DNA of 63,584 nt, the filler included, from Octopus bimaculoides (Eukaryota): NCBI RefSeq assembly GCF_001194135.2. It is 10 parts of 9 records of this genome, joined end to end, with 100 filler letters (N's around TTAATTAATTAA, not from the genome) between each part and the next. Parts side by side here need not be neighbours in the genome. Positions count along the whole stretch, not along the records: positions 1 to 25,596 come from NC_068981.1; positions 25,697 to 28,034 come from NC_068987.1; positions 28,135 to 30,648 come from NW_026358123.1; positions 30,749 to 49,460 come from NC_068986.1; positions 49,561 to 53,307 come from NC_068984.1; positions 53,408 to 55,534 come from NC_068981.1; positions 55,635 to 58,662 come from NW_026354011.1; positions 58,763 to 60,542 come from NW_026311145.1; 2 more parts are not named here. The stretch is one strand, 5' to 3'. The position numbers and the translations under genes are program-made. Below the pieces are notes generated by a model, which did no database searches, was not told the origin of the DNA, and saw nothing but the letters and a program-made list of their open reading frames with translations. How positions within the stretch are numbered: the stretch's first letter is position 1; every line of letters starts with the position of its first letter. Below, piece after piece: positions 10,431-61,802 of the stretch.

Positions 10431-10526
10431 CTCTAGGTGCGGTAAGAGCCACTGATGAGCGTTAAGATGCGTTAAGCATCAAAATGCGAAATCATAGATG
10501 ATCTGGTTATACCCGCGACCGTAGGG
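10431..10526 (+). ncRNA. Type I hammerhead ribozyme, intact-looking
   Basis: CUGAUGA 10452-58; stem II GCGU/AUGC enclosing hairpin GAUGC/GCAUC; GAAA 10488-91; stem III AUCAU-AG-AUGAU; cleavage after C10503; stem I AGCCA/UGGUU with further bulged extension. Confidence 0.85.
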
Positions 10527-10792
10527 AGCTTGTCTCCCTTGTCAGTCATTAAGATAGTGTTCCTGTGGCTACTAAGGTGTTTTGACTTTTATTTCTAGCC
10601 ATACTGGTGCTGATTAGTGCCCTTGTTCACTTTAGTGACGTGTATATTTCTCACTTTAGATTGTAATATTGTAAATTAGTCAATATATATNNNNNNNNNN
10701 NNNNNNNNNNNNNNNNNNNNNNNNNNNNNNNNNNNNNNNNNNNNNNNNNNNNNNNNNNNNNNNNNNNNNNNNNNNNNNNNNNNNNNNNNNNN

Positions 10793-10930
10793 AGCAGTTC
10801 GGCAAAAGAGACCGATAGAATAAGTACTAGGCTTCCAAAGAATAAGTCCTGGGGTCGATTTTCTCGACTAAAGGCGGTGCTCCAGCATAGCCGCAGTCAA
10901 ATGACTGAAACAAGTAAATGAGAATAAGAA
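10793..10930 (+). mobile_element. SINE-A 3' half
   Basis: gcagttcggcaaaagagaccgatagaataagtactaggc...ggcggtgctccagcat...gactgaaacaagtaa. Confidence 0.9.
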
Positions 10931-10939
10931 TGAAAGAAT

Positions 10940-11135
10940 AGGGAGAATTCACAAAAAACAAAAAACAAAAGACGAAGACAGGTGGTGTAGACAACAAACA
11001 GATGTATTAGTTTAACGCGCGGGAAGTGAAAAAGTCTTTAACGTTTCGAGCCTACGCTCTTCCAAAGAAAGGAACACAGAAAGAAACAGGGAGAGAAAAT
11101 AAAGAATATGTAATGTCGGACAGTAAATATACATA
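10940..11135 (-). mobile_element. Penelope-like element terminal (pLTR/tail) fragment, abutting a mariner insertion
   Basis: High similarity to 23781-23990, the end of the GIY-YIG-encoding element. It contains a decayed minimal HHR motif at 11036-11071. Confidence 0.75.
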
Positions 11136-58314: not shown

Positions 58315-58610
58315 GGTGCAGGAGTGGCTGTGTGGTAAGTAGCTTGCTTACCAACCACATGGTTACTAGTTCAGTCCCACTGCGTCGCACCTTGGGCAAG
58401 TGTCTTCTACTATAGCCTCAGGCCAACCAAAGCCTTGTGAGTGGATTTGGTAGACGGAAACTGAAAGAAGCCCGTTGTATATATATGTATGATGGAATAA
58501 GTGCTGGATTTACAAAGAATAAGTCCAGGGGATGATTTCTTCGACTAAAAACCCTAAAGGCAGTGCTCCAGTATGGCCACAGTCAGATAACTGAAACAAG
58601 TAAAAGAGTA
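58315..58610 (+). mobile_element. SINE-A with internal deletion
   Basis: Complete head plus 3' end; the middle segment is missing. Confidence 0.92.
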
Positions 58611-60835
58611 TATGTGTGTGTATATATTTCGTATGTGTATTTCGTGTGCAAGATTCTTGATGNNNNNNNNNNNNNNNNNNNNNNNNNNNNNNNNNNNNNN
58701 NNNNNNTTAATTAATTAANNNNNNNNNNNNNNNNNNNNNNNNNNNNNNNNNNNNNNNNNNNNGTGTGTGTGTTAGTATATGCATGTGTGAGCATGTGTGC
58801 ATGTGTGCAGTCGATGAAATTACAATCTTCGTATACGAATACAGGCAGTGATGTGGATGTATTGGGAGACAAGAAGAGAAAGAGAGAGAGAGAGAGACGA
58901 ACATCGAGAAACCAAAAAGATAGAGGCATTTAAGGAGATGAATATAATACGAGAAGGAAGGAGGCATAGTTGGAAATAGAAAGACGTATTCCCTAATGAC
59001 AAAATATTGATGGTTATGTTTGTGGTGGAGGGTAAGGGGGTTCATCTATCACAATAAATATGTGTTGTTCGCACACACCCACACATACACACATATATAT
59101 GTATGTATATATTTACATATATATAATTAAATCAATATCAGTATATATATATATATATATATATATATATATNNNNNNNNNNNNNNNNNNNNNNNNNNNN
59201 NNNNNNNNNNNNNNNNNNNNNNNNNNNNNNNNNNNNNNNNNNNNNNNNNNNNNNNNNNNNNNNNNNNNNNNNNNNNNNNNNNNNNNNNNNNNNNNNNNNN
59301 NNNNNNNNNNNNNNNNNNNNNNNNNNNNNNNNNNNNNNNNNNNNNNNNNNNNNNNNNNNNNNNNNNNNNNNNNNNNNNNNNNNNNNNNNNNNNNNNNNNN
59401 NNNNNNNNNNNNNNNNNNNNNNNNNNNNNNNNNNNNNNNNNNNNNNNNNNNNNNNNNNNNNNNNNNNNNNNNNNNNNNNNNNNNNNNNNNNNNNNNNNNN
59501 NNNNNNNNNNNNNNNNNNNNNNNNNNNNNNNNNNNNNNNNNNNNNNNNNNNNNNNNNNNNNNNNNNNNNNNNNNNNNNNNNNNNNNNNNNNNNNNNNNNN
59601 NNNNNNNNNNNNNNNNNNNNNNNNNNNNNNNNNNNNNNNNNNNNNNNNNNNNNNNNNNNNNNNNNNNNNNNNNNNNNNNNNNNNNNNNNNNNNNNNNNNN
59701 NNNNNNNNNNNNNNNNNNNNNNNNNNNNNNNNNNNNNNNNNNNNNNNNNNNNNNNNNNNNNNNNNNNNNNNNNNNNNNNNNNNNNNNNNNNNNNNNNNNN
59801 NNNNNNNNNNNNNNNNNNNNNNNNNNNNNNNNNNNNNNNNNNNNNNNNNNNNNNNNNNNNNNNNNNNNNNNNNNNNNNNNNNNNNNNNNNNNNNNNNNNN
59901 NNNNNNNNNNNNNTATATATATATATATATTCATATATATACATACATATACATTATTGGATAGGTGTGTGTGTATACCTATAATCTCTACTGTCACGTA
60001 ATTTTTTCCATTGAAGTATGATAGTTTTATACAATAATTTATTTATATTTGCCTTTCATATCAAAATACCCGAAATCATCGATGAATAGGAAAGGCTCGC
60101 TAAATATTTATATCCTACATTTTCAAAGCAACGTGATACCGCGAGTATATATAGGTATGTGTATTTGTGTGTGGTTTTATGTATATATATATATATATTT
60201 GAGTGTTTTTGTGTGTGTTTGTGTGCGCGTGCGCGCGTGCGTGCGTGTGTGTGTGTAAGCGGATAACTCTATATGTATACTATGTGCATATGTATCTGTA
60301 TATGTGTGTGTATGTCTGCATAAAGGCCGCATAAACAGCGGAATTATTAAATAAAATATATAAATGCGTTAATCCACGGATGTATGCATGTCCACATGTG
60401 TATCTGCATGTTTGTGTATAACACATGCATGTACAAATACATACATACATACATATATTTATAGATATATATAGATATACATTCATATATAAGCATGTAC
60501 GTACGTACGTATCTCTCTCTCTCTCTCTCTCTCTCTCTCTCTNNNNNNNNNNNNNNNNNNNNNNNNNNNNNNNNNNNNNNNNNNNNTTAATTAATTAANN
60601 NNNNNNNNNNNNNNNNNNNNNNNNNNNNNNNNNNNNNNNNNNATGATATATATATATATATATATATATAATCATAAATATACAGGGATTAGCATTGAGT
60701 TGCTTCTCCAACATACTGAAAATTTAGAAATAGCAGTCAAAGAACTACTGATTCTAAACTACAAATTTTTCTCTAAATGGATGGCGATATTTGTGGCACA
60801 CATAGAACAAAATATATATATATATATATATTAGT

Positions 60836-61237
60836 CGCAGAAGTGACTGTGTGGTAAGAAGCTTGCTTCCCAACCACATGGTTCCGTGTTCAATCCCACT
60901 GAGCGGCACCTTGGGCAAGTGACTACTACCATAGCCTCGGGCTAATCAACGTCTTGTGAGTGGATTTGGTAGACGGAAACTGAAAGAAGCCCGTCGTATG
61001 TATATATATATATATATATATATGTGTGTGTGTGTGTGTGTGTATGTTGTTTGTGTCTGTGACCCCGCCATCGCTAGACATCCGATTTTGGTGTGTTTAC
61101 ATCCCTGTCACCTAGCCGTTCGGCAGAAAGTGATCGATAGAATAATTACTAGGCTTACAAAGAATAATTCCTGGAGTTGATTTATTCGACTAAATGTTGT
61201 GCTCGAGCATAGCCGCAGTGAAATGACTGAAACAAGT
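60836..61237 (+). mobile_element. SINE-A full-length
   Basis: Head, internal TA/TG microsatellite, and 3' half ending gactgaaacaag. Confidence 0.92.
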
Positions 61238-61250
61238 GTTTATATATATA

Positions 61251-61802
61251 TATTTATATAAGGGCATTACTATACAAGAATGCCTCACGCTAAGAGGGAC
61301 TTTAAAAGTCAAACTACCATAATAAACACATTTTTACCGAACACGAGGTAATGCAACTCTCAAAGCTAACCCCCTGAAAACTTTTAAAGACTTTATCCTA
61401 TTATTGAATTATAAATAATTAGAATATATTCAGTGCTGTATTTTATTCTGATAAAACACATGTACCGAGATGCATTTAAAAAAAGCCCGCCTTTTTGTAT
61501 GGATATATAGGGATAAACAATTGTCTATGTGCTATGCTGAATACATGGAGTGTTCGTCTGGTATGTTGATCTTTGTTTATTTTTATGTGTCTTGACCATA
61601 CGTGTACTGATGAGTAAAAGATGCAGATTACTGCGTTAATTACGAAATCATGATCTACCGTTATGTTAAAAGTTTTTAGGGGGTTAGCTTTGAGAGTTGC
61701 ATTCCCTCGCGTTCGGTAAAAATGTGTTTATTATGGTAGTTTGATTTTTAAAGTCCCTGTTAGCGTGAGGCATTCTTGTATAGTAATGCCCTTATATAAA
61801 TA
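61251..61802. repeat. 137-bp inverted repeat pair (61251-61387 / 61666-61802) enclosing a 278-nt spacer with an HHR
   Basis: The arms differ at 5 positions when compared by eye. Confidence 0.95.
61597..61665 (+). ncRNA. Type I hammerhead ribozyme, intact-looking
   Basis: CUGAUGA 61607-13; stem II GUAA/UUAC enclosing AUGCAG/CUGCGU; GAAA 61644-47; palindromic stem III AUCAUGAU; cleavage after C61655; bulged stem I CAU-ACG-U-GUA / UAC-CGU-U-AUG. Confidence 0.87.

Follow-up and report, generated by a model that had tools for sequence, protein, structure and literature searches.

In ordinary type I hammerhead ribozymes the loop of stem II contacts that of stem I (PMC3088659, PMC6155905), and dimer cleavage through a palindromic helix III has been reported (PMC4209133, PMC6765202). 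Such motifs are carried by the animal retrozymes that lack long terminal repeats (non-LTR retrozymes), for which a replication cycle has been modelled that underlies the one proposed below (PMC7229834; 10.64898/2026.07.22.740005), and by the pseudo-long terminal repeats (pLTRs) of Penelope elements, whose reported insertions include head-to-head inverted copies, tails, (TA)n targets and partial tandems (PMC8557442, PMC3846280). The giant squid genome is reported to give 235 Rfam hammerhead hits (PMC6962438); what we say of published systems, here and below, draws on parts of the sources cited. We analysed a 63,584-nucleotide (nt) stretch of Octopus bimaculoides DNA (hereafter the window), AT-rich and with abundant microsatellites and interspersed repeats, which holds two hammerheads, A and B, and a decayed hammerhead pair at a third locus, C. 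From their folds and stem II geometry, a tandem repeat around A, insertions at B and C that are inverted and lie in microsatellites, and an endonuclease remnant elsewhere in the window, we put at about 70% the probability that these long-stem-II type I folds form part of a single old clan of retrozymes, non-coding and non-LTR, that is likely copied by Penelope enzymes.

An earlier note on the window had placed two hammerheads near 10.45 and 61.6 kilobases (kb), and both motifs and their coordinates are confirmed by a strict structure scan, which returned exactly these two matches in the window and none in any of 200 block-wise dinucleotide shuffles; a looser scan gave at least one match in 7 of 200 such shuffles. 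Hammerhead A (10447-10508, + strand) consists of stem I (AGCCA, 10447-51, paired with UGGUU, 10504-08), the core CUGAUGA (10452-58), a 29-nt stem II (10459-87), GAAA (10488-91) and a stem III of 4 base pairs (bp; AUCA/UGAU) with four closing bases, and its predicted cut lies 3' of C10503 (AUC). Hammerhead B (61604-61658, +) has the stem I GUA (61604-06)/UAC (61656-58), its core at 61607-13, a 30-nt stem II (61614-43) with GAAA next to it and, as stem III, a perfect palindrome of 8 nt (AUCAUGAU); it is predicted to be cut 3' of C61655 (AUC). By the scan, helices I/II/III measure 5/5/4 bp in A and 3/4/3 bp in B, with stem I open. The earlier note had drawn stem II as branched; it folds instead as a lengthened, unbranched helix interrupted by a 2x2 AA/AA internal loop, running 5 bp, internal loop, 5 bp and 5-nt terminal loop in A and 4 bp, internal loop, 7 bp and 4-nt terminal loop in B. 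Folded alone, each stem II reaches a z of about -4, which none of 200 shuffles equalled. The motif CTGAnGA by itself occurs at chance frequency in the window (25 observed, 26 expected).

A scan of the whole window against Rfam gave 134 matches at E <=5, with no hammerhead among them, and local scans scored A as Hammerhead_HH9 (RF02275) at 23.2 bits, below the gathering threshold of 52, and returned zero hits for B. B is recovered by a model built without it (see below), and by structure scan and fold prediction A and B are genuine type I hammerhead folds in which cutting is predicted. Stem I of A is predicted to extend into a rod (10407-10546, +) with a 4x4 internal loop, a distal GCGG/CCGC helix (10439-42/10513-16) and a 10-bp closing helix. 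Because the stem III of B is a perfect palindrome and its active fold is predicted to be poor as a monomer (-3.6 against -14.0 kcal/mol), B would be expected to require a dimer for cleavage. Directly 5' of B a long hairpin is predicted whose basal helix has 20 bp (61501-61592, +); A has no counterpart to it.

Locus C (48.0-48.6 kb), overlooked in the earlier note, surfaced in a self-search of the window as a piece of A's downstream flank. It is a head-to-head inverted duplication whose arms, 47975-48260 (-) and 48273-48575 (+), end in (TA)n and (TCTA)n, respectively, and align with 256 identities, 41 mismatches and 26 gap columns, each arm bearing one hammerhead with a 5-bp stem I. C1 (48128-48183, -) has an intact core, the palindromic stem III ACCGGU and a 29-nt stem II made up of 4 bp (one of them an A-C mismatch), a CA/AA loop, 6 bp and a 5-nt loop. 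C2 (48349-48404, +) shares this geometry, has its core altered to CUAAAGA and, judged by that change, is probably dead; the core CUGANGA, GAAA and a UH cut site are otherwise perfect in A, B and C1. The flank of C aligned to that of A better than in 3000 of 3000 shuffles, and since the flanks are homologous the kinship of C and A is independent of the ribozyme. Within their inner helices, 3 of 5 pairs differ on both sides between A and C while 15 of 15 inner cells pair, and over the whole of stem II 25 of 27 cells pair in A, C1 and C2, a score that 8 of 500 shuffles of these three sequences reach.

The earlier note had made A and B one family on the strength of paired changes between them. Its inner-hairpin covariation proved to be out of register: once the loop is used as the anchor, the two 5' strands match throughout, the two changes on the 3' side produce G-U wobbles and none of the five pairs is changed on both sides. 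Elsewhere, double-sided changes hold for two of three pairs in stem I and two of four in proximal stem II, and for none of the four in stem III. Because both motifs had been chosen for pairing, such changes are no test, and two copies cannot demonstrate covariation. The flanks, in which the earlier note had seen no obvious similarity, show no significant pairwise likeness between A and B (p 0.07-0.7), yet both hold a short box at a comparable distance. The broader idea of a diversified family with a selected stem II draws its support from locus C, from a leave-one-out model and from the multi-copy repeat around A rather than from A-B covariation itself. An alignment of the four motifs by MAFFT, which placed an 8-nt match in a different register, was rejected because that match is absent from an RNA read group of A's family.

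The leave-one-out model, R1, is a covariance model that covers core and stem II and for which A, C1 and C2 alone were used. It finds B at 30.3 bits (rough E 2e-4) as its sole other match with E <0.01, while short-stem hammerhead-like sites in the window score at most 17.8 bits. Pattern scans for the core plus inner helix selected 7 viral and 87 metagenome loci, which have GAAA downstream in 3 of 94 cases and a hammerhead fold in none, and the best R1 score among these 94 is 21.6 bits. When all four sequences were aligned, 7 of 9 pairs were double-sided and 0-1 of 500 shuffles reached this, a count that deserves little weight, as the alignment was fitted to the model and B sits one base off the loop register. 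Downstream flanks give p 0.02 for C against B and 0.07-0.2 for A against B. B is probably kin to A and C, although its likeness to them in sequence is weak.

It could instead be that A/C and B are separate families of retrozyme or Penelope descent, the long stem II having arisen convergently or the ribozyme module alone having been swapped. The A-B global and core-register scores are not significant, the upstream flanks are unlike, the units differ in length (346 and 496 nt) as do the stems I, and A-rich 2x2 loops evolve easily; moreover, in the short-stem hammerhead family of the window (10077, with a relative at 21071) stem III is likewise of the AUCA type, which makes the match in stem III undiagnostic. 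Set against this, the inner helix of B is like that of A (12 of 14 bases in a post hoc loop register, p 0.001-0.008), its outer stem and loop are like those of C (16 of 27 positions of stem II identical in core register, p 0.014-0.025), and B carries a TGCCCT box at a matching distance and an inverted arm that stops where the arms of C do. We regard separate origins as unlikely.

The surroundings of A were compared with public sequencing data. The stretch 10056-10685 is present wholly or partly in 20 of the 24 runs listed (from 9 studies and 5 organisms, none recorded as RNA), and four of the 24 were aligned to it: three DNA runs from three organisms, with 923, 1009 and 551 contigs, the majority of them <95% alike, and one RNA run. 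Depth rises about 5x at about 10303-10308 and drops past 10651. Head-to-tail joints stepping back 333-345 nt were seen in 3 of the 15 listed among 127, all in run X13, tandem DNA and circles yielding an identical joint; loose ends in runs X1, X13 and X21 match the opposite end of a unit of about 346 nt. Directly after that unit (10304-10649, +; ends approximate), the worn start of a second one (10650-10690, +) aligns to 10307-10343 and stops at (TA)n and an assembly gap. Owing to the depth step, the back-joints, the loose ends and this second start, we conclude that A is one solo copy belonging to a head-to-tail repeat of about 346 nt that is present in multiple copies. A and B each represent one hammerhead-bearing unit, that of A beside an assembly gap, and would so count as solo copies.

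Among the 40 best-supported of 336 differences, none falls in A's core or stem II and three fall in the remainder of the ribozyme: 10496 A->C, found in most copies, gives a perfect 12-nt stem III palindrome (49 contigs, depth 698/883, X1); 10507 T->C, also in most copies, turns a stem I G-U into G-C; and 10503 C->A occurs in a minority of copies and in 11 of 11 RNA reads. Low-agreement consensuses of the loose ends, unlinked on one molecule, hint at sister subfamilies of A with other distal stem I pairs. The units of A and B have GC contents of 0.39 and 0.32 and circular folds with z of -4.35 and -4.71 (60 shuffles), and no open reading frame (ORF) of at least 90 amino acids overlaps the A unit, the B unit or locus C.

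In the single RNA run, whose library type was by its record not suited, about 6% was read, and 67 of 12.9 million reads match A's repeat, on both strands, with none at >=95% identity. The run shows low-level transcription of other copies and is uninformative on cleavage. One could suppose that A and B are host-domesticated ribozymes controlling a host transcript at their loci, as proposed for amniote HH9. Both have perfect cores and stems, A's top Rfam match is HH9, and a contig of another species spans A's left flank with 17 differences in 311 nt, suggesting an old shared site; A, on the other hand, departs from the majority of its family at many sites, including the lost stem III palindrome, no RNA read is 95% alike to the A copy, C is decayed and the HH9 score is sub-threshold. 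We consider a host role very improbable. The earlier note's description of the motifs as functional most likely holds for a mobile repeat and not for the host, given the decay of C and an RNA run that shows only other, diverged copies.

A's unit adjoins a second, lower-copy repeat (10056-10302) headed by the short-stem hammerhead-like motif at 10077 (10072-10116, +), and a decayed relative lies at 20818-21071 (-; nhmmer E 5e-9). The lower-copy repeat is likely a fragment of Penelope pLTR type into whose end the unit of A was inserted.

The organization at B is that of an insertion. The 25 nt at 61386-61410 recur at 61882-61906, and because of this end redundancy, together with the circular fold, the unit containing B would measure about 496 nt (61386-61881, +); the repeat of its start (61882-61910, +) runs into (TA)n. 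Head-to-head with the main copy stands an inverted copy of 61666-61812 (61241-61387, -), which is identical at 140 of 147 positions and likewise ends in (TA)n, so that both outer ends of the insertion lie within (TA)n. A reading of the inverted repeat as a miniature inverted-repeat transposable element was rejected, as the element extends about 100 nt beyond the right arm and repeats the internal 25-mer, and so was one of the 25-mer as a target-site duplication, one copy sitting at the inversion point. The unit's end (61858-61885) resembles 61365-61387, the reverse complement of the bases right after the ribozyme, a likeness that could have steered the switch creating the inverted arm.

B and C are thus both head-to-head inverted insertions in microsatellites, as in the Penelope pattern, and their inverted arms stop a few bases past the same box. 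In all four runs the unit of A is deepest at this box (10581-10643, +; TGCCCT at 10618). Counterparts of TGCCCT lie at 61787 (+), 61266 (-), 47997 (-) and 48560 (+), and the hexamer stands 115, 132, 136 and 161 nt 3' of the cut site; it has 10 further occurrences in the window. No ORF for a reverse transcriptase (RT) plus GIY-YIG endonuclease was found next to A, B or C. A separate locus, 25060-25596 (-), holds a broken GIY-YIG-type endonuclease with a Cys-rich linker upstream, cut by an assembly gap and 72% identical to an Octopus bimaculoides protein. Pfam and PDB sequence searches gave this remnant no name; a homologue search did, its homologue P0003 (E 1e-13) carrying RT and GIY-YIG Pfam domains. 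We take the remnant to be Neptune-like, and infer that enzymes of its Penelope class move the units of A, B and C.

These same features would also suit the elements, B and C above all, being 5'-truncated pLTR ends of an autonomous Penelope-like element rather than circles that stand by themselves, with a ribozyme that serves the full-length element: head-to-head inversion and microsatellite targets are traits of Penelope insertion, a Penelope endonuclease remnant lies in the window, and retrozymes are reportedly derived from pLTRs (10.64898/2026.07.22.740005). The family of A, however, has its head-to-tail joints and a depth drop at both unit ends, the end redundancy at B flanks a non-coding, strongly self-paired unit, and neither the units nor C overlap an ORF of that length. 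We hold this explanation to be somewhat less probable even than separate families for A/C and B.

Several observations weigh against a single retrozyme clan. As to kinship, the global stem II alignment of A and B gives p ~0.2 under two nulls and their core-register comparison 8 of 27 identities (p ~0.7); A and C have a 5-bp stem I together with an internal loop, which B does not; a profile of the A and C flanks missed B's box; and the favourable statistics were picked after the alignment had been seen. C1 and C2 stem from one duplication and are non-independent, leaving three independent lineages in all, and the second pair of proximal stem II is an A-C mismatch in both arms of C. The length of B's unit is deduced from a single locus, and the aligned sequencing records are all >=80% alike, which biases them towards conservation. 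As to activity, the predicted minimum-energy fold differs from the active one (A -14.0 against -16.4 kcal/mol), the 67 RNA reads, all from other copies, show no read-end pile-up and no sign of cleavage or circles, and one group of 10 reads has a damaged core, although it retains the AA loop, the GAUGC/GCAUC helix and a GUGA cap. When retrozyme dimers of Xenopus were tested, 8 of 9 were reported uncleaved (10.64898/2026.07.22.740005), and mussel retrozymes are reported at high RNA levels (PMC7229834), unlike the 67 reads seen here, although the library type may account for this result of the RNA run.

If A, B and C do belong to a Penelope-copied retrozyme clan, their cycle might run as follows. 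A tandem array of units would be transcribed, neighbouring ribozymes would pair through their palindromic stems III and release unit-length RNA (about 346 nt for A and 496 nt for B), and ligation would close each unit into a self-paired circle. Next, a (TA)n tract would be nicked by a Penelope reverse transcriptase/endonuclease, which would prime near the TGCCCT box, and copying would go slightly beyond one turn, at times with an inverted copy added. Selection would act on the element RNA during movement, letting subfamilies drift in sequence with the fold kept, while inserted single copies decay.

The internal loop of stem II begins after 4-5 bp, as a terminal loop II would, and its two 3' As are kept in all four motifs. 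It occupies the position of the terminal loop II of ordinary hammerheads and is predicted to take over the contact with loop I, with the outer hairpin as a scaffold; the contacting base in hammerheads is the last A of loop II. A retains an HH9-like loop I and B has no comparable one, so a loop I/II contact is plausible for A on the predicted fold. The docking idea is tentative, since B offers no loop I to match and mussel retrozymes are reported to function without the usual loop contacts (PMC7229834). More tentatively, and at odds clearly below even, the octopus motifs may represent a cephalopod retrozyme clan of undescribed architecture in which loop I docks with the A-rich 2x2 loop in place of a terminal loop II, while a second conserved module, the extra hairpin, tunes monomer against dimer cleavage or is recognized by the Penelope enzyme or by a ligase of the host.

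Other elements of the window include weak R1 matches to minimal or decayed short-stem-II hammerhead-like cores at 34472-34510 (+), 5673-5702 (-) and 25837-25869 (+), the first running straight into (TG)n. Adjoining the right end of B, 61911-62216 (-) has, between TA repeats, a GC-rich hairpin and then CTAG, which we take to resemble a Helitron 3' end. At 11140-12380 (-) lies a frameshifted mariner-type transposase (Pfam Transposase_1, E 5e-8) with short inverted ends (11136-11175 and 12344-12383), and a dispersed repeat of about 160 nt has copies 76-88% identical at 10938-11101, 23778-23937 and 26541-26670.

Under the retrozyme reading, these loci extend retrozymes to a cephalopod genome and present a natural hammerhead with a stem II internal loop and extra hairpin kept in three diverged lineages, and the inverted, microsatellite-bounded insertions at B and C link non-coding units directly to Penelope-type integration. 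Should the loop make an activating contact, it would show a model ribozyme solving its tertiary structure in a new way and would offer engineering a natural scaffold whose stem II end is free; should the stem II extension do nothing, the clan is one further retrozyme family. In the literature surveyed we found neither an octopus retrozyme nor a natural hammerhead of type I whose stem II is extended and looped, although such cases may appear in the supplement of PMC7229834 and in PMC5785218, which lay outside its scope.

Compared with described systems, the octopus units are closest to animal non-LTR retrozymes (PMC7229834; 10.64898/2026.07.22.740005), which, as far as the consulted parts of these papers go, likewise carry a type I hammerhead in a short non-coding unit that is low in GC, self-paired and repeated head to tail, with many solo copies, several families per genome and a palindromic stem III. 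The unit of A (~346 nt) is close to the 350-390 bp of mussel retrozymes (PMC7229834), whereas that proposed for B (496 nt) exceeds the 170-400 nt given there and falls within the 51-972 bp of the second source (10.64898/2026.07.22.740005). Animal retrozymes differ in a stem II of 4 bp with a terminal loop, against 9-11 bp split by a 2x2 loop in the octopus motifs, and in their circles and high expression, the octopus units being known from DNA, predicted folds and 67 RNA reads.

Penelope pLTR hammerheads (PMC4209133, PMC8557442, PMC3846280) share the palindromic stem III, head-to-head inverted copies, (TA)n targets, a long helix II (7-8 bp in Schistosoma) and opposite-strand pairs 100-700 bp apart, and families with compensatory changes have already been described among them. 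Unlike these, the octopus loci have no adjoining RT/endonuclease ORF and no extra base between positions 9 and 10.1, and in A stem III is full and loop I looks canonical; helix II carries a single bulge in D. virilis, and the parts of that literature consulted contain no 2x2 internal loop. With Rfam HH9 (RF02275) and Schistosoma-type hammerheads, A shares a stem I internal loop ending in UAC with a distal helix, G10.1-C11.1 and the core, yet it scores 23.2 where 52 bits are needed, its stem II extension is an insertion, B is unmatched and the context here is a mobile repeat. The atypical type III hammerheads of hepatitis delta virus-like RNAs and of dipteran and termite genomes (PMC7936874) also extend a peripheral helix by an internal loop and hairpin, the loop making an interhelix contact that for the octopus motifs is a prediction; there the extension is on helix I of a type III fold with a Watson-Crick pseudoknot, whereas here a type I fold bears it on helix II and the loop is A-rich. 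Retrozymes, Penelope-linked hammerheads, long helices II and compensatory families are therefore already known, and the long, looped stem II is a new variant.

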